From positions 224,001-288,000 of the forward strand of contig CAWHXD010000007.1 in the NCBI GenBank assembly GCA_963833225.1: 64,000 bases of DNA. The letters run 5' to 3'. Below are positions 4,388-62,052 of this stretch, piece after piece (the stretch's first letter is position 1; every line of letters begins with the position of its first letter). The notes beneath the pieces were generated by a model that was not told where the DNA came from, searched no databases, and worked only from the letters and a program-made list of their open reading frames with translations. The position numbers were made by a program, and so were the translations under genes. The stretch is from an uncultured Chloroflexia bacterium (GTDB taxonomy: Bacteria > Chloroflexota > Limnocylindria > Limnocylindrales > CSP1-4).

Positions 4388-5048
4388 CGATCGCTGCCAT
4401 CGTGCTTGCCGGCGGGGCCTCGTCCCGCTTTGGCGGTGACAAGCTGGCCGCGGCGTACCTGGGGCGGCCGGTCCTCCATCACGCCCTGGCGGCGGTCGCG
4501 GCGGTTGCGGATCCGGTGGTCCTGGTGCTCGCCCCGGACGCCGCTGTCCCGGCGCTTCCGGCCGGGCTCGGGGCAGCGCTGCTCGTTGCGCGGGACGCCG
4601 TGGCGTTCCAGGGGCCGCTGGCCGGGCTGGCCGGGGGCATCGACGCGCTCCCGGCCGGCATCGACCGGGCAATCGTGGTTGCGGGCGACATGCCGACGCT
4701 CGTGCCCGGCGGTGCTCCATGCGCTGCTCGACGCCGTGGTCTCCGATGCCGGCGACCGGGGTCGCCTGCCTGGAGGCGGACCCGGAGTCCCCGCTGCCCA
4801 TGGCCGTACGGCCGTCGCTCGCGGGCCCAGCAGCCGCCCTCCTCCTGGCGGCCGAGCGCCGCAGCCTGCGGGCGCTCGTCGCGGCCGTCCCCTCGGTCGC
4901 GGTCCCGTCGGCCACCTGGCGGCGGCTGGATCCCGACGGGGTAACGCTCCGCGATGTCGACACGCCGGGGGATCTCGGGGGGTTGAGGCATGCTCTGGGC
5001 CTGGCGGCCGAGCGGGCTCGACCAGGGATGACTCACTCCTCGATTTGA
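4384..5048 (+). CDS. mobA: Molybdenum cofactor guanylyltransferase-like NTP transferase (frameshift near 4710)
   Basis: VLAGGASSRFGGDK, QGPLAGL and VVAGDMP in one frame; PLPMAVR...RDVDTPGDL continues in the frame ending at 5048. Confidence 0.75.
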
Positions 5049-5083
5049 GGCGAGCTCGCACGCGGGCCTTCTCTCGCCCCGCG

Positions 5084-6733
5084 TCAGCCGCCCAGCCCGG
5101 GCGCCTCGTGCACGGCCACGCCCTCGATGAACGTCGCGACGGCGTGGGTCTCGCCGATGGGTCCCGCGCCGGGTCGTCGAACAGGTCGCGATCGAGCATC
5201 GCGAGGTCGGCCAAGCGCCCGGCGCCAGCACGCCCGCCTCGTCGAGGTGGTTGGCGTAGGCGGAGCCGGCGGTCGCGGCGGTCAGGATGTCCACCAGCTC
5301 GAGGCGCTCCTCGGGCAGGAACGGCTCGGTGCCGCGCGCCTCGTCCGGGACCCGGTTGACCGCGACCTCCATCTGGACGAACGGGTCCGGCGTGGACACG
5401 CTCCAGTCCGAGCCCATGACGAGGGTGGCCCCGTGGCGACGAAGCGAGCGGAACGGGTACTGGCGCGCGGACACGACGGGCCCAGGATCGGCAGCGTCAG
5501 CTCCGTCCATCTGCGCTTCAGCACGGCCCAGTACGGCTGCGCGTTCGCCAGCGCCCCCAGCCTGCGGAACCGGGCCAGGTCGTCGGGATGGACGACCTGG
5601 AGGTGGGCCAGGTGGGGCCGGGTGTCGGACCAGCCGTTGGCTCGCCGGGCCGCCTCGACCGCATCGAGCGCCTGGCGCACGGCCCGGTCGCCCAGCGCAT
5701 GGAAATGCGGCTGGAACCCGAGGGCGTCGAGTCGCACGACGGCCTGCTTGAGCACCTCCGGGTCGATGAAGTCCTTGCCCCGGTTATCCGTCACGTGGCC
5801 GGCGACATCGAGGTACGGCTCGGTCATCGACGCCGTCTGGTTCTCCACGATCCCATCGACCATCAGCTTCACGCTGGTCGGTGAGAACCGGCCGACGGGT
5901 CCCCTGGCACGTCGCTCGACGAGTGACTCGATCTGCCCCAGGCCCTCGTCGCGCTCCCACCACAGGCCCCCAACGACCCGCGCGGTCAGCTCGCCGGATG
6001 CGCGCCAGCGACCGGTACGCGGCCTCCTCGACGGGGGTCACCCAGGCGTCCTGCCAGTTGGTGATGCCCAGCGAGTGGAGATACCGCTGGCTCTCGAGCG
6101 TGGCCCGGCGGAGGTCGTCGGCCGTGGGCGGTGGGATGAGGCGCTCCACGAGCGCCATCGCCCCCTCGTGGAGGGTGCCGGACGGGGTGCCGTCCGGATC
6201 GCGGGCGATCCGGCCATCGTCGGGGTCGGCCGTGCGCGGCCGAGATGCCGGCCCGGTCGAGCGCGGCCGGGTTGACCCACGCGTCGTGGCCGTCGCGGTT
6301 GGGCAGGAAGATCGGGCGGTCCGGGCAGACCCGGTCGAGGTCCTCCCGCCGCGGCAGGCCGCCCGGGAAGTCCGCCAGCGACCAGCCGCCACCCGTGATC
6401 CATTCGACATCCGGGTTGGCGCTGCGTGTAGGCCGCGACGGCGGCCAGGTAGTCGTCAAGTCCGTGGAGCCCGTGGAGCTCGCAGCGGATGCGCGCGAGG
6501 CCCGCCATCGGTGGGTGGACGTGGCTGTCGCCGAAGCCTGGCGTCACGGTGCGGCCGCGGAGCTCGATGACCCGGGTGCCCGGGCCCACCAGGGGCCGCA
6601 CGTCGCGGTCGCCACCCACGGCGGCGATGCGGCCCCCGCGGACGGCCATGGCCTCCGCCCAGGTCTTCGCGGCATCGGCGGTGAAGATCCGTCCCCCGGT
6701 CAGGACGAGGTCGGCGGCAGTCTCGCTCGGCAT
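5084..6733 (-). CDS. Amidohydrolase, YtcJ-like (several frameshifts)
   Basis: Consecutive frames give TVTPGFGDSHVH, NRDGHDAWVN, GTLHEGA, VKLMVDG, HFHALGDRAV, HLAHLQVVHP, MGSDWSVS and a C-terminus ATFIEGVAVHEAPGLGG*. Confidence 0.85.
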
Positions 6734-6824
6734 GGCCCGCAGGATGACAGGGAGTCCTGCCGACGACGCGCCCGTTTCGAGGCATGCGCCCGATGCCCGC
6801 GCGCGGCGGGCTGGCGGCGCGCGA

Positions 6825-8432
6825 TCAGCTAACGGCGGACACCTCGCCGGCCTCGCGCCCACCGCCGGCAGCCGCCGCATCGTCCGCGTCCTCGCCGGGT
6901 CGCGGCCGCAGCCCGACCCAGTTCGCGAGCGCCCCGCCGAGCAGCAGCGCGGCGCACACCGTGGCGGCGACGTGCAGGGCATCGACCGAGGCCACCCGGG
7001 CGGCGTCGACGAGCATTCCGGTGGCGCCGGCACCGGGCTTGTTGAGGGGCTGGACCAGGGCCCGCGCCGCCGGGTCCGACGGGTCGAACCCCGGGACCGC
7101 GCCGGCCAGCGCCGCGTAGAAGGACCCCGACACCACCACGAAGATGACGGCCGAGAGCAGCGGTTGTCCGATCCGGCTGATCGAGTTGTTGATCGCGGAG
7201 GCGAGGCCGGCGTTCGCCACCGGCACGGAGCCCATCAACGTCGTCGTCAGCGGCGCGACGACGAGCGAGATCCCGAGCCCGAACAGCAGCATGGCCGGCA
7301 GGATGTCGACCAGGACCGAGATCGGCGGCAGCACCGTCGCAGCGTCCCCCAGGGAGAGCCGCCACGCATCCGTCGTGGCCGGGACGCGGGCGAGCCACAG
7401 CAGTCCGGACGCCATCAGGACGGGCCCGATCACCAGGAACGGCCGCACCCCGATCCGTCCGGCAGCCGATCCGACCCGGGCGGAGAGGACCGTGAGCAGG
7501 ATCCCCGTGGGCAGCCCGACGATGCCGGCGGCCGTCGCCGAGTAGCCGATCGTGTTCTGGAGGAACAGCCCCTGGAACGTGAAGATCGTGTACAGCGCGC
7601 CGTAGATCAGCAGCGTTGACAGGTTGATGGTCGCGAAGCGCCGACGCCTGAAGAGCCCCAGGGGGACGAGCGGGTGGCGGCGCCGCACCATGAGCGCCGG
7701 GAACGCGACCAGGGCCACGAGCCCGACCGCCAGCGAACCCCACGCGAGCGGGTCCTGCCATTGCCGGTCCTGTCCCCGGATCGCGCCGAACGCCAGGCCA
7801 CCGACGGCGACGACCGCCACGGCCGCCCCCAGCCAGTCGAAGGTGCCCGGCGCATCGTCGGCCTTCGTCTCCGCCATGTGCCGCCGGGTGGCCCACAGGG
7901 CGATCGCCACCAGGGGGACGTTCACGAGGAATGCCGCCCGCCAGCTCACGCCATCGACGAGGAGCCCGCCGACCACCGGTCCCACGAGGGTCGTCGCCGA
8001 CGTCGCGGCGGCCCAGATCCCGAACGCGCGGGCCCGAGCCTGCCCATCGAACAGCGCCGTGAGGATCGCGAGCGAACCGGGGACGAGCAGCGCGCCCGCC
8101 GCGCCCTGGATCAGCCGGAAGACCACGAGCATCTCCAGCGTGGGCGCAAGGCCGCACAGGACCGACGCGGCGCCGAACCCGACGAGCCCGATGCCGAACA
8201 CGCGGCGACGGCCGTGATAGTCGGCCAGGGCCCCCCCGAGGATCAGCAGCGCGGCCAGGATGGCGAGATAGGCCGAGACCACGTAGGTCTGGCCCTCGAG
8301 CACCGAGACGAGGCTCGCCGGCAGCTCCTCACCGATCCTGGGCAGGGCCAGGTTCACCACGGTGCCGTCGAGGAACACCATCGACGAGCCGAGGATGGCC
8401 GCGAGCATGGTCCAGCGTTGGGACGAGGTCAC
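6825..8432 (-). CDS. MFS transporter, DHA2 (14-TM) family
   Basis: MVFLDGTVVNLALPRI, GGALADYHGRRRVF, RLIQGAAGALLVPGS; many hydrophobic segments. Confidence 0.92.
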   Translation of the reverse strand: MTSSQRWTMLAAILGSSMVFLDGTVVNLALPRIGEELPASLVSVLEGQTYVVSAYLAILAALLILGGALADYHGRRRVFGIGLVGFGAASVLCGLAPTLEMLVVFRLIQGAAGALLVPGSLAILTALFDGQARARAFGIWAAATSATTLVGPVVGGLLVDGVSWRAAFLVNVPLVAIALWATRRHMAETKADDAPGTFDWLGAAVAVVAVGGLAFGAIRGQDRQWQDPLAWGSLAVGLVALVAFPALMVRRRHPLVPLGLFRRRRFATINLSTLLIYGALYTIFTFQGLFLQNTIGYSATAAGIVGLPTGILLTVLSARVGSAAGRIGVRPFLVIGPVLMASGLLWLARVPATTDAWRLSLGDAATVLPPISVLVDILPAMLLFGLGISLVVAPLTTTLMGSVPVANAGLASAINNSISRIGQPLLSAVIFVVVSGSFYAALAGAVPGFDPSDPAARALVQPLNKPGAGATGMLVDAARVASVDALHVAATVCAALLLGGALANWVGLRPRPGEDADDAAAAGGGREAGEVSAVS

Positions 8433-29838: not shown

Positions 29839-30315
29839 TCAGTCCCCGCTCGACCCCATCGACTCGGCCTCGATCGCGAGGACCTTGTCAAGGCGCCGCC
29901 GGTGCCGCGGCTCGCCGGAGAAGCGCGCCGCGAGGAACGCCAGCGCACATTCGACGGCGGGCTCGATCCCGATCACCCGGGAACCGAGCGTGAGCACGTT
30001 CATGTCGTCATGCTCCACGCCCTGGTGCGCGCTGTAGGTGTCGTGGCACAGCCCGGCGCGGACGCCGCGCATCTTGTTGGCCGCGATGGACGCGCCCACG
30101 CCGGACCCGCAGACCAGGATCCCCCGGTCGGCCCGGCCCTCCTGGAGCGCGCGGCCCAGCAGGTGGCTGAAGTCCGGGTAGTCGTCCCCCGGGTCAGAGC
30201 CATCGCCGCCGAGATCGATCAGCTCGTGCTCTCCGGCGGTGAGCCTGGCCAGCTTCGCGAGCAGCTCGTCCTTGAACCTGGCACCCGCGTGGTCGGCAGC
30301 AAACACGATGCGCAT
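29839..30315 (-). CDS. rpiB: Ribose-5-phosphate isomerase B
   Basis: [47 protein letters not shown]. Confidence 0.95.
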
Positions 30316-30331
30316 CGCGCTGAGCCTCCGT

Positions 30332-32411
30332 CTAGTGGCCGTGCGGGACGTGGAGCGTCGCCTGGCGACCGTGCAGTCCCTCGCGGACCACGCGCCGGGC
30401 GACGTCGGCCACGCGGTCCGTGGTGAACCCGAACTCCCGCAGGATCGTCCCGGCGGGCGCGCTCGCGCCGAAGTGATCGATGCCGATGATCGCACCCTCG
30501 TCGCCCGCGTAGCGCTCCCAGCCCATGGAGACGCCCATCTCCACGGTGACGCGCTTGCGGATCGACGGCGGCAGGACGCTGTCCCGGTACGCCTGGTCCT
30601 GCGCCTCGAACCGCTCCCAGCAGGGGAGCGACACCACCCGCGTCGGGATGCCGTCGTCCTCGAGGGTGCCGGCCGCGTTGAAGGCGAGCTGGAGCTCCGA
30701 GCCGGTGGCCACCAGGATCAGCTCCGGCGCGCCACTCGCGGCCTCTCGCAGGATGTAGCCACCGCGGCGCACGCCTTCGCGCGCGAGCTCCGTGGTGCCC
30801 GGGAGGGTGGGCAGCTTCTGGCGGGTCAGCGCCAGCGCCACCGGCCCGCTGCCCGCACCGTCGAGCGAGGGCCGCTCCACCGCGAGCGCCCAGGCCGCGG
30901 CCGTCTCGTTGGCATCGCCCGGGCGGACGAACCACAGGTTGGGAATCGCGCGCAGGGCGGCGTAGTGCTCCACCGGCTGGTGGGTCGGGCCATCCTCGCC
31001 GAGGCCCACCGAGTCGTGCGTCCAGACATAGATCACGTGCAGGCTCGAGAGCGCCGCGATCCGGACCGCGCCGCGCATGTAGTCGCTGAAGGTGAGGAAG
31101 GTGGCCGCGTACGGGAGGAAGCCGCCGTGGTAGGCGATGCCGTTGGCGATGCCGCCCATCGCGTGCTCTCGGACCCCGAACCGCAGGTTGCGGCCCGCGT
31201 GCTCGGCCTCGAAGTGGTCGTGGCCGAGGGCCTTGACGTCGGTCAGGTTGGACTCGGAGAGGTCCGCGGAGCCGCCGAACAGCTCCGGTACCGGCCCCGC
31301 GAGCGACTGGATCAGGTCCTGGCTCGCGTTGCGGGTCGCGACCTCGGTGCCGGTCTCGTAGACGTTCAGGCCGGCGTTCCAGCCGTTGGCCAGGACGGCG
31401 CCGGTCATCCGTCGGCGGAGCTCCGCGGCCGCTTCCGGATAGGCGTCCCGATAGGCGTCGGGACCGCGCTTCCCAGTCCGCGACGAGCGCCTGCCCGGCC
31501 CCGACGGCCTCACGGAACAGCGCGCTCGCCTCGTCGGGGACGAAGAACGTCTTGTCCGGATCCCAGCCGTAGGCCTCCTTGGTCAGGCGGACCTCGTCCG
31601 CGCCGAGCGGGGCGCCGTGCGCCTTCTGCGTGTCCTGCTTGTTCGGGCTGCCGAAGCCGATGTGGGTGCGGACCGCGATGATCGACGGCCGGTCGTCCGC
31701 CTTGGCGGCCTCGATGGCGGCGCTGATCGCGGCGACGTCGGTGCCGTCCTCGACCCGCTGCGTGTGCCAGCCGTACGCGGCGTAGCGCCCGAGGACGTCC
31801 TCCGTGAAGGCCCATGCGGTAGGCCCATCGAGCTGGATCCGGTTGTCGTCGTAGAGGGCGATCAGCTTGCCCAGCTTCAGGTGTCCGGCCAGCGAGCTGG
31901 CCTCGGCGCTGACGCCCTCCTGGAGGTCACCGTCGGAGCAGATGACGTAGGTGCGATGGTCGACGATCTCGTGCCCGTCGCGGTTGAACTCCCCGGCGAG
32001 ACGGCGCTCGGCGATGGCCATGCCGACAGCGTTGACGAGCCCCTGGCCGAGCGGGCCCGTGGTGGCCTCGACGCCCGGGGTGAGGCCGAACTCCGGGTGG
32101 CCCGGGGTGATCGATCCCCACTGGCGGAAGGCCTTGAGATCGTCGAGGCTGACCGCGTAGCCGGTCAGGTGGAGCAGCGAGTAGAGCAGCATCGACGCGT
32201 GGCCGGCGGACAGCACGAATCGGTCGCGATTGGCCCATGCGGGATCGCTCGGGGCATGCCGCAGGTGCTTCGTCCACAGCGCGAACGCCATCGGCGCCAT
32301 GCCCATGGGGGCACCCGGGTGCCCGGAGTTCGCCTGCTGGACGCCGTCGATGGCGAGGGTGCGGATGGTGTCGACGGCCAGCCGCTCGAGCTGGTCCTGG
32401 GCAAGGGTCAT
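30332..32411 (-). CDS. tkt: Transketolase (frameshift near 31460)
   Basis: [57 protein letters not shown]. Confidence 0.96.
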
Positions 32412-32560
32412 CGCTGCTTCTCCGGGTGTTCGGAACGCCTGGCGGGACTGCCTCGCGTGGGTCCGGCGCGAGCAGCGCGGCGCGTTCGGCCGCGAGGAGC
32501 CATCGTACCGCGCCATGCTTCACGGCCATGGTGTCGGTGTCGCCGTCGTATGCTCGGGTC

Positions 32561-52999: not shown

Positions 53000-53082
53000 G
53001 GGTCGGGTCGCTCCCCGGCGGGATCCGGCGGCGGGCGTGGGTGTGGATGCGGTTGCGAGCACAGGTGGAGCGCCCGTGCGGG

Positions 53083-53095
53083 AGGGGGCACGTCC
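53083..53095 (+). repeat. attL core AGGGGGCACGTCC
   Basis: Exact match to 61917-61929; lies 15 nt upstream of the recombinase ATG. Confidence 0.88.
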
Positions 53096-53110
53096 ACATA
53101 TAATGCGGGT

Positions 53111-54355
53111 ATGAGTACCGCCGTCGCCTACCTTCGCCGGAGCCGGGTGGACACCCGCCGCCCTGGCACCGTCTCCCACGCCGAGCAGAAGCCGCCGTCA
53201 CCGCTCTGGCCGCCCAGCATGGCGATCACGATCTAGATGTTCTCGAGGACTGGGGGCGATCGGGCCGAGACGAGAAGCTCGCCAAGCGCGACGCGTTCGC
53301 CGATCTCCGGGCCCGCGTCAAGCGTGGCGACGTGACCGCCGTCTACGCCTACGACGTGTCGCGGCTCGGGCGCTCCGTCGTGACCCTCCACCAGCTGATG
53401 ACCGAGTGCAAGGCCGCCGGCATCCCCATCCGCTGCGCGTCGGGCTACTCCCCCGACATCAGCACCGCCGAGGGGCGGCTGGTGTTCGCCAACCTCGCCG
53501 CGATGTTCCAGTACCTCGCCGAGAGCGTGCAGGAGCGGGCCGCGCGGCGCGTCGAGGAGCGGCGCGAGAAGGGGGAGCTCATGGGCCCCGCGCCCTTCGG
53601 CTACCGGCTCGTGGACGGCAAGCATGTCCCCAACCCGGCCGAGGACCTCGCCACCGTGATCGAAACGTGGCGCGCGTCCGAGAGTGTCGCGGAGGCGTGC
53701 CGGCGCCTGAAGATGCCGGGGTGCGGACCCGGTCAGGCGTCCAGTGGCTACCATCGACGCTGTACGCGATCCTCGAGCACGAGGGGCTGCGCGTCCGCAC
53801 CCTGCAACGTGGACGGCCCGTGAAACGCACCTACCGGTTCTCGCGGCTCCTGCGATGCCCGCACGACGACTCCGCGCTCGTGGGCAACGGCAAGAACGGG
53901 CTCGTGCAGTACGAGTGTCGCGCGTCGCGCCTGACCGGCGATCACCCGTACCCACGCAGCATCTCCGAGCGGCTGATCCTGCCGTGGGCGGAGACTGAAG
54001 TGGACAGGCTGCGGCTGCCGGTGGACACGGTACAGACCGCGGTGGACAACGCCGAGCGCCGGGCCATCCTCTCCGGGCGCTTGGACCGCGCCAACGAGCT
54101 CTACATCGCCGGGAGCATCCCCAAGGACCGATACGAGCGGGAGGCCGCCGCGGTGGCCGCGGAGCTCGACGGCTTGGACGCCGAGGACGAGATGATCGCG
54201 GTCCCGCCGATCGGGCCGCACGATTGGGACACTTGGGCGCCCGCGGACCTCAACCGGACACTCCGCGCCCTCTGGTCCCGCGTCGAGCTCGGGGCCGATA
54301 TGCGGCCTGTCCGTGCGGAGTGGCGCAGCCGGCCCTGTGGAGCCCGGCGTCGTGA
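53111..54355 (+). CDS. Large serine recombinase/integrase (apparent frameshifts near 53190, 53710, 54325)
   Basis: AYLRRS (catalytic Ser), EDWGRSG, YDVSRLGRS, PAPFGY, zinc-ribbon-like LLRCPHD..YECR, coiled coil. TATAAT lies 6 nt before the ATG. Confidence 0.9.
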
Positions 54356-54675
54356 TCCTGCGACCGCTCGCCGTCGTGGGTTCGGCTGCCCGGTGCCCCG
54401 AGCCCACCTGTGGAGCCTGGATTGGCCGCGTCCGACGCGACCGGCGCGTCACCGAGCGTCACGGGCAGGAACCAACGCCCTATGTCGCCGAGACCTTGAT
54501 CCTCTCGACGCTCTGGCGGCCCGTCAACGGCGCTTGGCGCCTCGGCCGCCACCATGGGATGGACGAGCGGACGGTTACCTTCAGGCCGCTACCGATCGTG
54601 TGTCCCAAGTGCCACCACAAGGCCGCCGCACCGCCGCTGGTTTCGCGATTGCAGCCGAGGCCGCACACGGCGTAG
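54352..54675 (+). CDS. Hypothetical zinc-finger protein
   Basis: GTG overlaps the inferred integrase stop (GTGA); CPEPTC ... CPKC. Confidence 0.55.
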   Translation: MILRPLAVVGSAARCPEPTCGAWIGRVRRDRRVTERHGQEPTPYVAETLILSTLWRPVNGAWRLGRHHGMDERTVTFRPLPIVCPKCHHKAAAPPLVSRLQPRPHTA

Positions 54676-54772
54676 TATCTGGCTACCAACCCCAAGCGCG
54701 AGCCGACAGCGCGGCTCCACCGCTCTGCTCAACCGACAACGACGGGCAGGGTCAACGTGGAGTCGCGTTTCG

Positions 54773-54948
54773 ATGTTGTCGGAGAAGAACCCGCGCAAGG
54801 TTCGCGCCGGTCAGGCTGCGATGCGCAAGCGCTGGGGGCCGCAGCGAGTGCTGGCCTGGACCAGCTCGATCCCGTCACCCGTGAAGTGATCCTGTCCATC
54901 GTCGAGGCTCGGCGCAACGCCGCCGCTGCCGACGCCGGGCAGCAGTAA
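54773..54948 (+). CDS. Small basic hypothetical protein (one apparent frameshift)
   Basis: SD GGAG; MLSEKNPRKVRAGQAAMRKRWGPQRVL / LDQLDPVTREVILSIVEARRNAAAADAGQQ*. Confidence 0.5.
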
Positions 54949-55125
54949 GGGCCGCCGTCATGCGAGCAACCGGCAGCCCTCCGTCCAAGCCTACCCCCGA
55001 CGAGTGGGAGCGGGCTAATCACGCCGCCTACATGGTCGGCGTCATCCTCCGATACCGGCACCCGGCTGGGTCGTCGCGGAGCGGTTCCGCGAACTTGAGG
55101 CCGCGGGAGAGGCCCACAACGACGC

Positions 55126-56142
55126 ATGGTTCGGGACCGCGACGATGGTCCGCGGCTGGGACCAGACGTGAGCCTCACCGAGCCCGAGTGGGTCCGGGAT
55201 GGGCCTACGATCATCCCTGAGGCCGTCACACGGCCCCGGCTGGCCGTCACCGGCTCGCACCGCCTCTCGGTCCTGCGCTGGCAGGAGCTGATGACCTCGC
55301 CGCCCGAGCCGCCGCCGGTCCTCCGGGCCGGTATCCCGGAGGTGGGCGTCACTGTCCTTGCCGGGAGCCCGAAGGTGGGTAAGACACTCTGGAGCTCCCA
55401 GACGGCGCTGGAGATCCGCAAGCCCGTCCTGCTCGTCATCGAGGAGGGCAGCATGAGCGGGATCACCTACCGGCTGGCCAGACAGGCCGCCGCCCTCGAC
55501 ATTGCCGCGCCACCCATCGCGGTTCTGCACCGTCAGCGGATCCGCCTGGACAACCGGAGCAGCGTGGACGCCCTCCGGGCCATCGTGGCGGCCGAGCGGC
55601 CCGCGCTCGTGGTCCTGGACCCGCTCAACCGGCTCCACGGGGCCGATGAGAACCGGCCCACGCAGATGACCCCGGTCATGGACGCCATGGCCGGCATCGC
55701 CTACGACTACGGGGTCGCGGTCCTGGCGATCCACCACCTGTCCAAGCCCTCCGCCGAGCGGCGCGGGGACATCTGGGACCGCTACCGCGGCGCGTCCTCG
55801 ATCCGCTCCGGCACGGACGCCAACCTCGCGCTCGACGGGTCCGGAGACCGCGTGCGGCTGAGGGGTGAATTCCGGGATGCAGAGCCGCTGTCCGAGTACC
55901 TCGAGCTCGACCGCAACACGCTGCTATTCGGGCCGGGCGACGCCCCGGAGGCGCCGACCAAGGTGGACGCCCTCGCGCTGCGCCTGTTCGTCCAGGAGCG
56001 GACGCAGGTCACGGCGGCACAGGTCATGGCCGAGTACGCCGTGTCGAAGATGACCGCCCTTCGAGCCCTTCGAGCCCTCGGCTGTGACGAGTTCCCCGGT
56101 GTCCGCGGGACCCTGACGTTCACCCTCGGAGGTGGCTCGTGA
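55126..56142 (+). CDS. AAA_25 / RepA-type SF4 helicase with C-terminal HTH-like segment
   Basis: Walker A LAGSPKVGKT, Walker B LVVLDP, GADEN, IHHLSK, YRGASSI. Confidence 0.88.
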   Translation: MVRDRDDGPRLGPDVSLTEPEWVRDGPTIIPEAVTRPRLAVTGSHRLSVLRWQELMTSPPEPPPVLRAGIPEVGVTVLAGSPKVGKTLWSSQTALEIRKPVLLVIEEGSMSGITYRLARQAAALDIAAPPIAVLHRQRIRLDNRSSVDALRAIVAAERPALVVLDPLNRLHGADENRPTQMTPVMDAMAGIAYDYGVAVLAIHHLSKPSAERRGDIWDRYRGASSIRSGTDANLALDGSGDRVRLRGEFRDAEPLSEYLELDRNTLLFGPGDAPEAPTKVDALALRLFVQERTQVTAAQVMAEYAVSKMTALRALRALGCDEFPGVRGTLTFTLGGGS

Positions 56143-56146
56143 GCCT

Positions 56147-56300
56147 CCACCGTCCACCGTCTAACGACCGTATACCCACCGTCCATTGGACGCTGTCCAG
56201 GGACTGTCCCACCGTATCGTCACACGCCCCCTTTAGGGGGTGGGCTATGCGGTGGACGGTGGACGCCCGGAAGGGACAGTCCCAGAGGGACGACCGTATA
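56147..56300. repeat. Origin-like region with iterons and palindromes
   Basis: CCACCGT x4 plus an inverted copy, CGACCGTATA x2, inverted GGGACTGTCCC/GGGACAGTCCC, and central CCCCCTTTAGGGGG; directly after the helicase. Confidence 0.65.
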
Positions 56301-56421
56301 GCGCGCCCGGCGAAGCCATGGGGGCTTTGGCTAACTCCGCCACCCCCGCCACCCTCCACCCGCGCCTTAGGCGACTCGCTGTGAGCCTGTCCCTTTCCCG
56401 ACCCGTTTCCCAGAGGTTGAC

Positions 56422-56730
56422 ATGACCCCACCCATCCGCCCGCCCTCGCACCTGTCCAAGCCGTCCAAGGCGCTTTACATCGATGTCATGGGCAGCTACC
56501 TGCTCGAGCCCCACCACGTGGCCCTGCTCGTCAAGGCGCTGGAGGCCCGCGACCGTGCCGACCAGGCACGCGCCGAGATTGGCCGCGGACCACTCATGGT
56601 CACCTCCCGGCTCGGCGAACAGAAGCCCCACCCGCTGCTCACCGTCGAGCGGGACGCCCGCGCCCAGTTCGGCACGCTGATGAAGCAACTCGGCCTGGAC
56701 ATCGACGGCCCGCCGTCCAACCGGAGATAG
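56422..56730 (+). CDS. Phage terminase small subunit, P27 family
   Basis: PPSHLSK N-terminus; GPLMVTSRLGEQKPHPLL; FGTLMKQLGL C-terminus, typical of P27 TerS. Confidence 0.82.
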   Translation: MTPPIRPPSHLSKPSKALYIDVMGSYLLEPHHVALLVKALEARDRADQARAEIGRGPLMVTSRLGEQKPHPLLTVERDARAQFGTLMKQLGLDIDGPPSNRR

Positions 56731-56732
56731 CC

Positions 56733-56942
56733 ATGCCCTCCCCCAAGCGCCGCCCCAAGCTGCACCGCCCGCCCCCTGCCGATCTGTCCGGCCTCGCCTA
56801 CTGGGAACTCGTGGAACTCGCCAAGCGTGGCGAGATCACCTGGTCCGACATCTCGGCCGAGACCCACCGTCAGGTCCTCGCGTCCAACGGCGGCATCGAC
56901 CCCTACGCCCACCTCCGCATCGACAGGGAGCCCCTCGCATGA
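56733..56942 (+). CDS. Hypothetical protein
   Basis: SD GGAG; tightly packed between terS and the next ORF (ATGA overlap). Confidence 0.6.
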   Translation: MPSPKRRPKLHRPPPADLSGLAYWELVELAKRGEITWSDISAETHRQVLASNGGIDPYAHLRIDREPLA

Positions 56943-57180
56943 ACGCCACCGCCGCCGAAATCGCCGAGGCAATCGCCAACCTGGCCGCCGCCGCCCACCA
57001 GCGGCTCGACCGCGGCGACCTGTTCGCCCTGCTGGACGATCCGGCCGCGGAGAAGCGGGTTGACGTGGACGGAGACACCTACCGGCTCACGGCCGGCGAC
57101 GTGACCCTGTGGAAGGCCCTACGGCCGCCGTCGCCGCCGCGGTCGAGATCCTGGCCGCCAAGCGCGACAAGCTGAACTAG
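56939..57180 (+). CDS. Hypothetical protein (probable frameshift near 57120)
   Basis: SD GGGAG; MNATAAEIAEAIANLAAAAHQRLDRGDLFALLDD... Confidence 0.55.
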
Positions 57181-57184
57181 CCCG

Positions 57185-57214
57185 TTGCCGGAACGTGCGC
57201 CCTAGCGGTAACAT
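57185..57214 (+). promoter_or_regulatory. Sigma70-like promoter upstream of the capsid gene
   Basis: TTGCCG (57185-57190), 18-nt spacer, TAACAT (57209-57214). Confidence 0.55.
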
Positions 57215-57337
57215 GTTCTCGCCGCCCAGAGGGTGGCAGTCAACGGGGCAGCGCGCCCGGTGGGCCCAGAGGGCCCGTCAGGAGCAGCGCCCGCCGCCAG
57301 AGGACCGCGCCAGAGGCGAGGCCCACGAGGCAGCGGA

Positions 57338-58709
57338 ATGGCCGACCCGGCCGCCTATCTGCTGGCGATCTCGGCGCCCCTTGGAGACACCGTGACCCCG
57401 ACCAACTTCGACTACACCGCCGAGCAGCTTCGTGCGCTCGATCATGCCATCGAGGGCGCGCGTACCGTCGTCCGGCTCGATGAGATGCGAGACGACGGCA
57501 AGGAGTTGACCTTCAACCAGTCGACCGACCGCGCCGAAGCATCCGGGCGTGGAACGACGCGGCCGACATCGTGCCCAGCCTCGCCCGGTGGGAGAGCATC
57601 ACTACCGACAGCGAGGCCTTCACCCGCTCCCTGGCCACCCTCCGCATGCACCTGCAAATGGGCAAGGGCGCAGCCCTCAGGGCCGAGATGCGTGCCAACG
57701 GCGCGGCCTACCTATTCGATGGAACGCTGGACCGCCCTGGCAGCGGCAATCCCGAAGCCATCACGATGAACGACCAGATCCGCGAGCTCTTGCAGTCCGG
57801 CGAGCGGCAGCACGACTTCGAGTACCTCGAGACCGACGCCATCCGCGAAATCCGCCGTCCTTCGCCGCCGGCGAGCAGAGGGCCATTGCCAACTTCTCGG
57901 ACGCCTCATCGCTGCATGTCAACGACTTCCGGCGACAGGTGGCGATGTACGCCCGCACGGCCAGTCCGTGGCTCGGACTGGCAACCGTCGTGACCTCCGA
58001 CGCGGGCCGGCCTCTGATCGTGCCCAAGCTCACGGGTGACGGCACCGTCTACACCCCGGGTGAGGGGACTGCCGTGTCCGAGAGCTCGGCCGTGCTGGAC
58101 TCCGTCACCGTGACCCCGACCGGGTTCAAGGCGTTGACGTACATCAGCCGTGAGAGCTGGGACGATGAGGAGGTGGACCTCGGCCGCCTGCTTGCCGCCT
58201 CGCACGCGCGGGCCATCGGCCTGGCGTTCGGCTCGACCGCGACCACGGCCGTCCTGGCTGGGATCAGAACGGCGGCACCGCGTCCGGCCTCGGTGGCGAC
58301 GGTACGGCCGTCGTGCCGTTCCTGGATACGAGGACTTGATCGACCTCCAGATGGGTCGAGCAGCCCCGTACCGCGAGGGCGGTGCCTACGTGATGGCCAA
58401 CGGCGCCATCACCAAGGTCAAGAAGTTCAAGGACGGACAGGGGTCCTACCTCTGGCCGACCGGCGCCCTGCCCATCGGTGGCATGGCGTATGAGGACCCG
58501 AACCTGGCGCTCCCGCCTCGGCCACCAAGAGTGTGTGCTTCGGGGATTGGGGCGCCGCCCTGATCATCAAGGCCACGCCGATCCGGGTCGAGGTGTCGCG
58601 GGACTTCCTGTTCAACACCGACCAGGTGGCCATCAAGACCGTCCAGCGCATCGCCCTCGCGGTGCAGGACCCGGCCGCTGCCGCGTACCTCGTGAGCGCC
58701 GATACGTAG
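57338..58709 (+). CDS. HK97-fold major capsid protein with N-terminal extension (several frameshifts)
   Basis: Joined frames give LATVVTSDAGRPLIVPK, EGTAVSES, TYISRESWDDEEVDL, YEDLIDL, AYVMAN, KFKDGQGSYLW, CFGDW, VEVSRDFLFNTDQVAIK. Confidence 0.85.
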
Positions 58710-58945
58710 ATCCCCCGGACCGCCAGTACCCCTCCGGCCTGTCCACCTCAATCGCCCGCACGGGTTCCGCGTCGTCGCTCCACCTCGAAGGCGCGGCGCT
58801 CTGGCAGCAGCTTCGGGTCCGGCCGGAGCGTGCGGGCTAGGCCGTCGCTGACCGGCGGCGCAACCCCCCGTGGGGAACGCAGGACCTTCGAACGAGGTAA
58901 AGTCACGTACGGTCATGACAACGATGACGAACGACCAACCCGACA

Positions 58946-59770
58946 ATGCGTGATCGGGACCGCGACAAAGTCGCGCTCCGGGGCTCCATCGTTGACTTCG
59001 GCGATCCGCCGGTTATCGAAGTGGCCCTGTCGACCGAGATCCGTCGTTTACCGCACATGAGCCTGGTCCGCATCGTGGACGCATGGCACGAGCTGTATCA
59101 GGATCGCTTCCCGGAGGTTCAGGAACAGGCTCGCTACGCGCCCCCGCCGCTAAACGCGGAGCGCGGGCAGAGGATTTGCATGATGTCCCAACTTCCCACG
59201 CCAAGGCTGTGGTTCCTCAATCAGGCTCGAACCGACCTCATTCAGCTCCAGAACGACTGGTTTGGGCGCAACTGGCGCAAGGTTGAGGGCGCCGAGGAGT
59301 ATCCACGATACGGCGTCCTCCGCGAGGCGTTCGCCCACGACCTTGGGCTACTGCGGGACTTCACCGAGCGCAATGCGCTGGGATCTCTTGTGCCCACTAC
59401 CTGTGAGATCACGTACATCAACCACATCGAACTGGCACCAGACTTGGGTGTTGAACAGGTCCTCGGCGTGCTATCGCGGGATGGTGGAGGCTTCCTCCCC
59501 AAGATGGAGGCAGGTAGCCTGTCGGCTCGCTTCGCAATTACGGACGGCGAACACGCGCGAGGTACGCTTGCCGTCAACGCCTCGACCGCCACCCGGGCTG
59601 GCGACAATGCCAGCATTCTCGCGTTGCAGGTGACGGCTCGAGGGAACGCCACCACAGGCGATGTTGCTGGCGTGCTGCGATTTTTGGATCTCGGTCACGA
59701 ATGGGTTGTGCGTGCATTTGCGGAGTTGACGACCGAGCAGATGCACCAGCGCTGGGGGAGGACGCAATGA
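58946..59770 (+). CDS. TIGR04255-like protein
   Basis: FGDPPVIEVAL, PRLWFLN, LIQLQNDWF..NWR, YPRY, CEITYINHI, FAELTTEQMHQRW. Recognised from memory of the family pattern. Confidence 0.75.
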   Translation: MRDRDRDKVALRGSIVDFGDPPVIEVALSTEIRRLPHMSLVRIVDAWHELYQDRFPEVQEQARYAPPPLNAERGQRICMMSQLPTPRLWFLNQARTDLIQLQNDWFGRNWRKVEGAEEYPRYGVLREAFAHDLGLLRDFTERNALGSLVPTTCEITYINHIELAPDLGVEQVLGVLSRDGGGFLPKMEAGSLSARFAITDGEHARGTLAVNASTATRAGDNASILALQVTARGNATTGDVAGVLRFLDLGHEWVVRAFAELTTEQMHQRWGRTQ

Positions 59771-60284
59771 CGGCTCTGCTGCCAGAGACACGGTACCTAT
59801 CGGACCACCTGGTGAATGGCCAGTTCGAGGACTTTGCCGCCACGGGGGCCGCAACGACTGGGAGTCCGGCGTCTTTCACCTATCGCCTGGGGACAGCAGA
59901 TCTTGCTCCTTACATCGCACGCCAACGAGCTGACGAGTTCGTGTCGCGCGCGATCGAGCGACTGGAGTTGATGCGCCCGAACTGGGACGGAGACAACGGG
60001 CGGGCGATCTCGCCTCGAGCCCTTGCATACGCGGCCGGGCTGGTTCCCGATCTTGCTGCCCAGGGGGTGATGATCCCAAGCCTCGTTCCGGTGTCGGATG
60101 GCGGGATCTCGATTGAGTGGCACCGCGGGGGCCGCCAAAGCTGACCCTCTACGTCCCTCCGCGGTTCCCGGACGAGGACGCCGTCGCCTACTACCTCGAC
60201 GAGCGCACTGGCAACGAGTGGGAGGAAGCGCTGCCAGCCAACGAGTCGCGCGTTGAGGCGCACTTGGCGCAGTTCCTGGAGTAG
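59767..60284 (+). CDS. Hypothetical protein (frameshift near 60140)
   Basis: ATGA-coupled to the upstream gene. LELMRPNWDGDNGRAISP...VPVSDGGISIEWH continues as LTLYVPP...AHLAQFLE*. Confidence 0.7.
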
Positions 60285-60343
60285 CCCGATTTGGAAACGT
60301 CGACGCTGACTGGCAACGCTTCCGTGAGCCAGGGGACCGAGGT

Positions 60344-60754
60344 TTGACTGAGGCGCGGGTAGAGGCTGATGCCATCCTTCTGCGCAAGATCACTCCCGAT
60401 TGGGTGGTGCCCGACAACGAAGGTGGGTTTCGTGTGTCGAGTGCGGCGTACAGAGGCAATCGGACTGCCTCGAATTTGAGGGCGTTCTCGGTGTTCGTCG
60501 AGGCCCGGCTGACAGCGTCCGGGGCTGACGCCTCCGTACTCTTGGACGCTGATCAAGGCCTCTGGAGCGTCGTGAGCATCGACATCGGGACCGTGCGCGA
60601 AGTCGACCTTGAAGCGTGGTACCGCCCCGAAGGGGTGGACCCCATCCTAATTGAAGCCCACGCAGAGGTTGAAGGATCCATCAGCACGAAGAAGGCGTCG
60701 ACACTGGCTCGCAAGTCGCGACAGGTGATTTGGCGAGGGTCGTCGTCAGCGTGA
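60344..60754 (+). CDS. Hypothetical protein, possible ADP-ribosyltransferase-fold toxin
   Basis: Pattern LLRKI...SSAAY...FSVF...HAEV, resembling the R / S / H strands of small ART-like toxins. Confidence 0.6.
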   Translation: MTEARVEADAILLRKITPDWVVPDNEGGFRVSSAAYRGNRTASNLRAFSVFVEARLTASGADASVLLDADQGLWSVVSIDIGTVREVDLEAWYRPEGVDPILIEAHAEVEGSISTKKASTLARKSRQVIWRGSSSA

Positions 60755-60806
60755 GTGCTGGGTGCCATATCCCGCCCGCTTGCCAGTTCGCGATTGTCCT
60801 CCGGGC

Positions 60807-61055
60807 CTACGAGGGCGTTCCACCCTCGCGGATCAGCCGAAGGCACCGAGCCAGTTCCCGGATGACCCCCAGCTCGGTCGGGGCAATGGCCGTCCACTCC
60901 TGCGACCGAGCGCCCGCCTGAGCCCACTCTCGCGGATCGAAAGCGTACTGCTCCCACACATTCCGCCCCTCGTCGTAGGACGGCCGGCCCACGAACCAGC
61001 CCGGAGGCTTCGCTTCGTAGAGCTCGCTCCAGGCGGCCTCTAGGTCGGTGGGCAT
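60807..61055 (-). CDS. Hypothetical protein
   Basis: TACCAT 7 nt before the ATG; Trp-rich 82-aa ORF. Confidence 0.65.
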   Translation of the reverse strand: MPTDLEAAWSELYEAKPPGWFVGRPSYDEGRNVWEQYAFDPREWAQAGARSQEWTAIAPTELGVIRELARCLRLIREGGTPS

Positions 61056-61100
61056 GGGGCCGATGGTACGGCTATGGCGGCCTTGCGGATCAGTGGTCTG

Positions 61101-61772
61101 CTACTCGCCTGTCCTTTGGGCCATCGAGACCGCGAGCGCGAGGACCGCGACGACTGCACCTGCCACCAGTATCCACAGTCCATACCCCACCGAGGCGCGG
61201 GTGCTCTCACTGCTGGCATCTATGAGGCGGTTCGACATATTGACTAGGTCGTACGCGGACAGCGCGACGAGCACCAGGGCGCCTAGCAGTGCCAGCGGAC
61301 GGCGACGGCGGAAGCCGGTCGCCAACGGAAACGCAAGAACGGCAACCAGCACCGCAAGCCAAAGAGTCAGGACGCCGTCGCCGTCCGTGCCGGCGATAGA
61401 GAAACTGCCAAGACCGCTCTGCGCGCTGGCCCACGGCAGGACACTGCCGACTGCAGCCACAACCGCAGCACCAGCAGCCACATAGCCAAGTTGCGTCGAG
61501 GCTTGGCGAGCGAGCGTGGCGGCTACCGGATCGACCGGGACGGTCCGTATGCGGCCCCAGCTCAGGATCGCGTCCCCACCCAGCCTGTCGAGGACGGCTT
61601 CGCCAATGTTGTCGAGCGGCACCCGAATTTCGTCGCCACTCTTTGTGGACCGGATGATGACCACGCCCGGCTCGAGACGCAGCACCTCGCCACGAGTGCC
61701 GGTCGCTGGTGTCGGAACCTTGTACTTGATGCGAACACGTTGACCCGTCCGTAACTCCGGAAGGCCTGTCAT
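61101..61772 (-). CDS. Membrane protein with N-terminal SH3/KOW-like beta domain
   Basis: SD AAGGAG; GQRVRIKY..RGEVL; four C-terminal hydrophobic helices (LPW, GYGLWILV). Confidence 0.7.
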   Translation of the reverse strand: MTGLPELRTGQRVRIKYKVPTPATGTRGEVLRLEPGVVIIRSTKSGDEIRVPLDNIGEAVLDRLGGDAILSWGRIRTVPVDPVAATLARQASTQLGYVAAGAAVVAAVGSVLPWASAQSGLGSFSIAGTDGDGVLTLWLAVLVAVLAFPLATGFRRRRPLALLGALVLVALSAYDLVNMSNRLIDASSESTRASVGYGLWILVAGAVVAVLALAVSMAQRTGE

Positions 61773-61916
61773 CCCATGCTCCTTTGACACCTCGGTCTTC
61801 GCGACCGGCTCGACGGGTGGTTGCCTGTGAGGCCAGCCTACGCGGATCGCGGCGATGCCGAAGCGTTCGGGCGGGGTCTCCTTCCATGCGCCCGATGCGT
61901 GACCCGCAAAGTTGAC

Positions 61917-61929
61917 AGGGGGCACGTCC
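61917..61929 (+). repeat. attR core AGGGGGCACGTCC
   Basis: Exact match to 53083-53095. Its first base completes TTGACA (61912-61917). Confidence 0.88.
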
Positions 61930-62052
61930 TTCCGCACGGGTGTCCGGTTCAAACCCTATCCGCCGCCACTTATCTGCCACTTACGCGGAGGGTGGTACTG
62001 GGCGCTCCCGCGGGAGTCAGGCTAGGATCGGCCCCCGACACCGAGGAGCCGA

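Follow-up and report, generated by a model that had tools for sequence, protein, structure and literature searches.

A 64,000-nucleotide stretch of the genome of an uncultured, Chloroflexota-like bacterium (the window, C7:224001-288000) contains an integrated element with a repeat-to-repeat span of 8,834 bp. The element is real and sharply bounded, and its build is rare and little described. It is precisely inserted, and it combines an integrase and a helicase–origin module with a small terminase subunit (TerS) and a major capsid protein of a private lineage, without a portal, large terminase subunit (TerL), protease, or tail. On balance, we favor the interpretation that it is a minimal, integrated phage satellite, which brings its own capsid protein and TerS and depends on a helper phage for the remainder. 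Nearly all phage satellites known to date come from Proteobacteria and Bacillota, and where such a satellite has a capsid gene it brings the entire head module with it. The host genome (G000) comprises 3.89 Mb in 20 contigs and is rated 86% complete; the window has a G+C content of ~72% and holds no tRNA genes.

The limits of the element are set by a 13-mer, AGGGGGCACGTCC, which occurs exactly twice in the window, the number expected from 100 shuffles being 0. The two copies form the cores of the left and right attachment (att) sites:

53083..53095, no strand: attL core, the left copy of AGGGGGCACGTCC, with a left flank contiguous with the empty site of congeners
61917..61929, no strand: attR core, the right copy of the 13-bp repeat, from the repeat search and the empty-site alignment

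The occupied site lies between comEA and a gene for a DUF1232 protein. We searched 30 genomes of the genus with the DUF1232 protein from the right flank and read 11 loci. The two genes are separated by 0.15–1.1 kb in ten of these, and in seven of the 11 one exact copy of a 12-base core is found between them. Alignment of attL and attR with three empty sites shows that, in the congeners, the sequence to the left of attL runs without interruption through the core into the sequence to the right of attR, and the element is therefore an insertion of 8,834 bp. The first-pass annotation, made from the letters of the window, had taken it to be a discrete element between direct repeats, and the exact ends and the empty site in congeners bear this out.

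The empty site is a long imperfect palindrome or hairpin with the core at its center (-45.8 kcal/mol, z -5.7), and the central 13 bases are invariant in all three empty sites aligned. Large serine recombinases use palindromic attB sites with a central crossover. The arms of the palindrome between comEA and the DUF1232 gene measure ~25 bp (for example, L173:1335-1400), and in the window they are split between 53050-53095 and 61917-61960. One congener (G014) keeps the stem despite changes on both sides. The palindrome may have a role of its own, as an operator or an RNA element.

For the gene content, all 138 stop-to-stop frames of at least 50 amino acids between 52.9 and 62.3 kb were compared with Pfam, and 56 of those with PHROGs. 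Every gene listed in the first-pass annotation was recovered in its place, as were both repeats. The portion of the element that is relevant to mobility, replication, and packaging is as follows, where GC3 denotes the G+C fraction at third codon positions and ORF an open reading frame:

53112..54886, plus strand: large serine recombinase (integrase), ~590 codons in at least four frame pieces, from Pfam, phrog_95, and the GC3 frame plot
55126..56142, plus strand: AAA_25 (RepA/DnaB-like) replicative helicase, 338 amino acids, intact, Pfam AAA_25 at E 1.2e-21
56143..56421, no strand: non-coding spacer of ~280 bp with iteron-like repeats, a putative replication origin from its repeats and position
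56422..56730, plus strand: TerS of the P27 family, 102 amino acids, from Terminase_4 and phrog_83
56733..56942, plus strand: ORF of 69 amino acids with a strong coding signal (GC3 0.89) and no Pfam, PHROG, NCBIfam, or PADLOC family match
56939..57175, plus strand: ORF of 78 amino acids with a strong coding signal (GC3 0.87) and no family match in the same four collections
57338..58709, plus strand: HK97-fold major capsid protein with an N-terminal delta/scaffold-like region, in six frame pieces, from PF05065, with a start deduced from the translation

The integrase is recognized by its Resolvase domain (PF00239, E 2e-18). Two of its frames match phrog_95, at positions 113-262 and 361-563 of 651 (E 3.4e-10 for the second), and there is a match at 33 bits to gamma-delta resolvase. 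The frame-broken gene has no Pfam match to the Recombinase (PF07508) or zinc ribbon (PF13408) families, and its C-terminal frame has no match in the PDB. The spacer is regarded as a putative origin because it directly follows the helicase gene; it contains CCACCGTCCA in both orientations, the palindromes GGGACTGTCCC/GGGACAGTCCC, and two copies of ACGACCGTATA. TerS passes the Terminase_4 cut-off (28.8 bits against 24.7) and matches phrog_83 (E 3.9e-7), while its match to TIGR01558 (E 2.5e-8, 33.9 bits) falls under the cut-off of 45.6. The capsid protein matches PF05065 in three frames, which cover profile positions 7-113, 148-192, and 217-278 of 280, and in a frameshift-aware comparison it aligns over its whole length to the intact capsid protein of a related element, L012, described below. 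PF05065 is the sole Pfam family matched by the capsid pieces at E <=0.01, and no encapsulin family is matched.

The first-pass annotation had also claimed that the gene set is minimal, and the profile searches agree: TerL, portal, protease, tail, lysis, primase, and helix-turn-helix (HTH) regulator genes have no Pfam or PHROG match in frames of the element of at least 50 amino acids.

Comparisons of the element with its relatives by tblastx are dominated by noise in this GC-rich DNA and usable for the helicase only. The helicase has 147 homologues, of which the 120 listed are 50–75% identical and several are named Chloroflexota; some homologues are fused to a Prim-Pol domain. Scanning species genomes with the helicase gave six close loci, titled Chloroflexota, Limnocylindrales, or Chloroflexia. 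Relatives of the capsid protein are likewise named Chloroflexota, which supports the earlier assignment of the element to a probable Chloroflexota host.

Two of the loci hold elements of the same build and of 8–9 kb, rather than the prophages of 30–50 kb that would have spoken for an ordinary phage origin. The first, L012, is flanked by the host genes ymdB and rny, occupies ~8 kb, and encodes, in order, a tyrosine integrase, a 122-amino-acid ORF, the AAA_25 helicase, two small ORFs, an intact capsid protein of 438 amino acids, and three small ORFs. Its helicase and capsid protein are 67% and 52% identical, respectively, to those of the element in the window, and the sole candidate for its ends is an 11-bp repeat. 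The second, L015, measures 8,962 bp between 41-bp direct repeats at a tRNA-Val gene, which is followed by a tyrosine integrase, the helicase, an HTH_23 protein, small ORFs, a divergent capsid gene, and an ORF of 580 amino acids. The other capsid proteins in the genome that carries L015 show no similarity to that of the L015 element. A third, partial (33-bp) copy of the tRNA-Val att repeat is present 1.6 kb past attR of the L015 element (L015:16798-18473), and may have been left behind as a scar by another, tandem element. A further locus, L011, situated in a genome flagged as unpublished, starts in the same manner with tRNA-Lys, a tyrosine integrase, the helicase, and an HTH protein before the contig ends.

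More distant helicases belong to other kinds of element. A metagenome scan with the helicase alignment kept 80 loci, of which one is close (L031, 1.4 kb) and the others are 23–32% identical. Six of the distant AAA_25 loci were examined; they are mobilizable elements with a relaxase and have no capsid family match, the distant helicases from gut metagenomes being 26–28% identical. They lie on contigs of 7.5–10.4 kb from human gut or activated sludge (L038, L056, L064, L068, L098, and L107). Along with the MobA/VirD2 relaxase and an integrase of the serine or tyrosine type, they encode a sigma factor and a DUF6076 protein. Their size and gene list (sigma factors, helicase, and integrase) recall the dominant gut group of published mini-genomes that is considered below (PMC13669383).

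The capsid protein places the element beside phages and yet apart from those examined. That of L012 has many homologues of 400–460 amino acids, and 17 contigs in IMG/VR encode capsid proteins 44–60% identical to it. Of these, seven were scanned with Pfam: all seven carry a portal gene (PF04860), the capsid gene, and a glycosyltransferase gene, four gave a match to the S78 protease, and TerS, TerL, tail tube, and tape-measure-like genes each occur in some. A rapid maximum-likelihood analysis gave a tree of 51 rows, from which the duplicates L123 and L128 and the sequence of L133, with a miscalled capsid frame, had been omitted. The capsid proteins of the window and of L012 fall within one clade of 15 rows, with a support of 99 in the Shimodaira–Hasegawa-like approximate likelihood ratio test (SH-aLRT), and none of the 14 phage-borne rows falls inside it. 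Instead, 13 of the 14 belong to a separate clade of 32 rows (support 94), while L136 and L015 are on long branches. The protein nearest to the capsid protein of the window is P0123, at 66% identity. The capsid phylogeny thus separates this lineage from the phage-borne capsids examined. A close relative of the helicase was not found in IMG/VR, and the replication module is therefore not derived from those phages.

In the seven phage contigs scanned (L120, L125, L128, L129, L131, L133, and L135), a family-4 glycosyltransferase gene is found directly 3' of the capsid gene in every case, often followed by further glycosyltransferase or methyltransferase genes. This arrangement may reflect capsid glycosylation in this group of phages.

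These relationships bear on the simplest alternative, namely that the element is what random decay has left of a prophage of 30–50 kb from which TerL, portal, protease, tail, and lysis genes were deleted, its likeness to other small elements being coincidental. The capsid lineage is indeed related to that of normal siphophage-like contigs, at the identities just given for L012, and TerS followed by the capsid gene corresponds to a phage gene order that has lost its middle. However, the element has exact ends on both sides and congeners have an empty site, two independent elements with intact genes share the same 8–9-kb build while differing in their integrases and insertion sites, and the capsid proteins form a clade of their own. 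Searches of the phage contigs did not turn up the helicase module, nor, at E 1e-3 in the related phage contigs, any match to TerS or the small ORFs; against relatives and phage contigs together, TerS and the small ORFs show no similarity at that threshold or at E 0.05. We therefore regard random decay of a full-length prophage as very improbable.

A different kind of decay has to be weighed with regard to the reading frames, at which the first-pass annotation had merely hinted by recommending that the assembly be polished. Neither the integrase nor the capsid gene is a single open frame: the former has at least four changes of frame and the latter five. In the integrase gene, the ATG and the region of the catalytic serine motif are in one frame to ~53190, the next frame contains the remainder of that domain (Resolvase) to ~53700, and further pieces run over ~53700-54300, ~54300-54672, and ~54680-54886. 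These breaks were placed by GC3 and profile matches alone, because no close relative was found for alignment. Searches found no close integrase relative at E 1e-10 in 300 genomes of the class, none among the longer proteins covered by a word-indexed search, and no match at E 0.001 among 1.84 billion proteins searched with HMMER. In the capsid gene, the net frame changes lie near 57541, 57852, 58265, 58324, and 58509, and each amounts to one missing base; two mutually cancelling events at 57582 and 57607 are probably alignment noise.

Similar breaks occur throughout the assembly. A frame-state Viterbi scan based on G+C periodicity gave 596 candidates for frameshifts over 3.55 Mb of coding DNA, including 35 clusters of at least three, all of these being counts of candidates that may include false positives. 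The host part of the window and ten of the 35 clusters were checked with Pfam for split genes. Housekeeping genes were found split over frames, namely those for transketolase (window 30222-32519), adenylosuccinate synthetase (purA) and GAR synthetase (purD; both in C8:375495-378987), and formate-THF ligase (fhs), as well as tryptophan synthase beta (trpB); aroA (EPSP synthase, C8:803649-806211) lies in three frames and an amidohydrolase gene (window 4482-7234) in four pieces. The same holds for the TerL gene of a second phage-like region, on contig C14. The breaks in the element are consequently no proof of decay. We are fairly confident that those in the integrase and capsid genes are assembly errors, although, because the assembly is so rich in indels, the activity of this copy is uncertain. 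The completeness rating of 86% is perhaps an underestimate for the same reason, and gene-level claims from this genome need a polished assembly first.

The alternative is that this copy is dead, being a satellite or prophage remnant that lost its integrase and capsid genes through real frameshifts and now persists as a fixed, cargo-bearing island. The distribution of the breaks is compatible with such a loss: at least nine fall within the 3.1 kb of the integrase and capsid genes and none within the helicase and TerS genes, against a genome-wide estimate of about one per 6 kb, which this density exceeds several-fold. The absence of a close integrase relative from every search fits it too. On the other hand, similarly clustered breaks affect essential genes of the host, those of the capsid gene are all single-base deletions, and the helicase gene is frame-split at the related locus L016, in another metagenome-assembled genome. 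Moreover, the segments contain no internal stop codon, their GC3 signal is intact, and they are 52–66% identical to relatives end to end. We consider a dead copy unlikely, while real decay may, given the density of breaks, have contributed. Of the earlier argument that intact ends speak against decay, the part concerning the ends holds, as they are exact; the frames of the integrase and the capsid protein are broken in this assembly, probably as artefacts.

Phage-inducible chromosomal islands of the capsid-forming type (cf-PICIs) are modeled on 11 core parts, of which at least nine are required, and have a median size of 14 kb (PMC10085698; PMC10690885). They carry genes for the capsid, protease, portal, head–tail adaptor and connector, TerL, TerS, and HNH proteins (PMC10085698, PMC10690885). 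The element resembles them in being integrated, in having its own HK97-type capsid, TerS, and replication gene, and in lacking tail, lysis, and holin genes. It differs in having no more than four of the core parts in 8.8 kb, a serine integrase, and a Chloroflexota-like host. Judged by the published definition, it is not a cf-PICI, since TerL, portal, protease, adaptor, connector, and HNH proteins are unmatched among its frames of at least 50 amino acids.

PICIs of the type of the Staphylococcus aureus pathogenicity islands (SaPIs) share with the element an integrase, a replication initiator or helicase of their own next to an iteron origin, and their own TerS, which redirects the helper terminase (in part, PMC10690885). 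However, SaPIs remodel the helper capsid through Cpm and Ppi and have no capsid gene of their own, and neither the tyrosine integrase nor the Stl/AlpA-type regulator of SaPIs was found in the element. HTH, AlpA, and primase domains, to be looked for because PICIs have AlpA/Stl-type regulators and a primase-replicase, were not found with Pfam, PHROG, or NCBIfam, the AAA_25 helicase being the analogue of the replicase. In the same scans of the frames of the element, Psu, Sid, Delta, Epsilon, the alpha primase-helicase, and AlpA of P4-like satellites had no match. The PLEs (phage-inducible chromosomal island-like elements) of Vibrio cholerae are satellites that use a large serine recombinase, as the element does, but are not known to have a capsid gene; PLEs are known from Vibrio only. 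The Streptomyces satellites MulchRoom and MiniFlayer resemble the element in having a high-GC host of the Gram-positive type and their own capsid and TerS. They bring TerL, portal, and capsid and have no replication genes (PMC10690885), and are thus the reverse of the element, in which replication genes are present and TerL and portal absent.

The closest published description is that of the mini HK97 genomes of the so-called twilight zone (Aguilar et al. 2026; PMC13669383). These genomes are ~8.75 kb long and encode an integrase, sometimes an excisionase, a RepA/helicase, and a capsid with a scaffold, with no terminase, portal, or tail (PMC13669383). A satellite lifestyle is one of two hypotheses offered by the authors (PMC13669383). 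The element falls within the size and content limits used there, with a genome of <11.6 kb, an HK97-fold capsid, and neither portal nor tail (PMC13669383). The dominant group among these genomes comes from the human gut, has no terminase or packaging gene and capsids enriched in encapsulin domains, and consists of circular contigs with direct terminal repeats (DTRs) (PMC13669383). Set beside this group by description, the element stands apart in having TerS, a plain PF05065 capsid whose pieces match Phage_capsid only, integration at exact att sites, and a host of another phylum. We found no description of this type of element from Chloroflexota in the literature; a preprint on Dehalococcoides IME1 concerns unrelated, capsid-less elements of 21–28 kb. 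The earlier claim of a distinct type is accordingly upheld as regards the cf-PICI definition, which the element does not fit, and has to be tempered as regards novelty: the kind is less new than had been assumed, because portal-less and tail-less HK97 mini-genomes of ~8.75 kb were published in 2026 (PMC13669383).

This resemblance raises the alternative that the element is an autonomous or non-satellite entity, that is, an integrative, plasmid-like element with a portal-less, encapsulin- or procapsid-like shell that serves some function other than helper-dependent transfer, or that is packaged by a portal-free route. Both a portal-less shell and portal-free packaging are discussed for the twilight-zone genomes (PMC13669383). 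An 8.8-kb genome with an integrase, a helicase, and an HK97 capsid, and without portal or tail, agrees with the published description, and no helper was found in this genome. Against this, TerS is present and is meaningful only together with TerL and a portal, the capsid belongs to the PF05065 phage family only, with no encapsulin match in Pfam at E <=0.01, and its nearest outgroup consists of ordinary phages that carry a portal and a protease. We judge this alternative to be rather improbable.

Several observations weigh against the favored interpretation of a helper-dependent satellite. No PF04860 portal and no second PF05065 capsid occur in the genome, so that a helper is not seen in it. 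The phage-like region on contig C14 was considered as a resident helper and rejected, its TerS and integrase having no similarity to those of the element at E 0.01. Among the capsid-clade rows, the genomic context is known for two of 15, namely this element and L012. TerS was seen in this element only, none being detected in L012, L015, or L011, and no small ORF is common to this element and L012. No excisionase or regulator was found in the element. In L014 and L016, the helicase is present and no capsid gene occurs in the following 2.5–2.7 kb, and the capsid gene is therefore associated with two of the four helicase relatives that have at least 2.5 kb of downstream sequence; the helicase accordingly acts as replication module for a broader group of integrative elements. 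At E 1e-40, no helicase relative was found in 400 genomes of the class or in 400 of the phylum, so the type is either rare or poorly sampled. To these points the density of frame breaks is to be added. Lastly, helper use, induction, and packaging by this element are deduced from its gene content.

With these points in mind, we propose the following mechanism for a helper-dependent satellite. The element was inserted, presumably by its large serine recombinase, at the center of the palindromic attB that separates comEA from the DUF1232 gene, and the same enzyme would excise it. Once excised, the element would use its own AAA_25 helicase to replicate from the iterons, and its P27-type TerS would mark its DNA for the large terminase of the helper. 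Its HK97 capsid protein, equipped with its own N-terminal scaffold-like region, would assemble on the portal of the helper, and the resulting heads, matured by an S78-type protease of the helper, would suit an 8.8-kb genome or concatemers of it. Tails of the helper would complete the particle. The helper would probably be an HK97-like phage of the sister capsid clade.

The rejected C14 region (C14:1765-14476, locus L170) is a second compact phage-like region, 12.7 kb long, at the start of its contig. It contains genes for a ParB-methyltransferase, TerS (phrog_83), TerL, a portal (phrog_104), a capsid protein of a different family (phrog_212), a major tail protein, a Holliday-junction resolvase, and a serine integrase, with seven candidate frame breaks; no tape-measure or lysis gene was seen in the 12.7 kb. 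This region could represent a prophage truncated where the contig stops, or else a further satellite-like element.

The right-hand 3 kb of the element would represent variable cargo, possibly including a defence pair. Its G+C content (0.62–0.66 between 58.9 and 61.9 kb) is lower, and it encodes the following:

58946..59770, plus strand: protein of the TIGR04255 family, 274 amino acids, NCBIfam TIGR04255 at 41.4 bits against a cut-off of 30
59701..60754, plus strand: ORFs 59701-60144 and 60344-60754, with weak PDC-M32 matches in PADLOC (candidate defence system)
60807..61055, minus strand: 82-amino-acid protein of a family that is multi-copy in congeners, from relatives in the genus
61101..61772, minus strand: predicted membrane protein with a hydrophobic C-terminal half, from the translation, with no family match

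The weak PADLOC matches are to PDC-M32A (E 3.5e-6, covering the C-terminal part of the 375-amino-acid profile only) and PDC-M32B (E 0.0015). The TIGR04255 ORF and the next ORF overlap by 70 bp (within window 58946-60754), and they may be one gene split by another frame break. The ORF of the membrane protein as listed extends to 61952, a start that is unlikely to be real. Arrays of the 82-amino-acid family are also present in two congeners (G017 and G001). In a third (G015), the insertion locus itself is occupied by a 24.6-kb island of lower G+C content (G015:C1:121264-145923; loci L201 and L202), which has at least six copies of this family; a tblastn search with 22 queries detected no phage structural gene or integrase in it.

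More tentatively, we put forward the idea that the element and its relatives in the capsid clade constitute a distinct lineage of minimal capsid-plus-TerS satellites of Chloroflexota. Members would be 8–9 kb in size, would use a private capsid to build small, self-sized heads, would depend on HK97-like helpers for portal, protease, TerL, and tail, and would freely exchange integrases, whether serine or tyrosine, and cargo. The source is an uncultured phylum of soil and freshwater. Being integrated between exact att sites at a locus that is empty in congeners, and having a TerS, the element favors the satellite answer for the portal-less mini HK97 genomes, and, if the idea is correct, such a lineage would offer a natural explanation for at least some of those that have been published. 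It would also be an intermediate between PICIs, which remodel the capsid of the helper, and cf-PICIs, which bring the whole head, and would represent the smallest known hijacking kit that still controls the identity of the capsid, consisting of a shell protein and a DNA-recognition subunit only.

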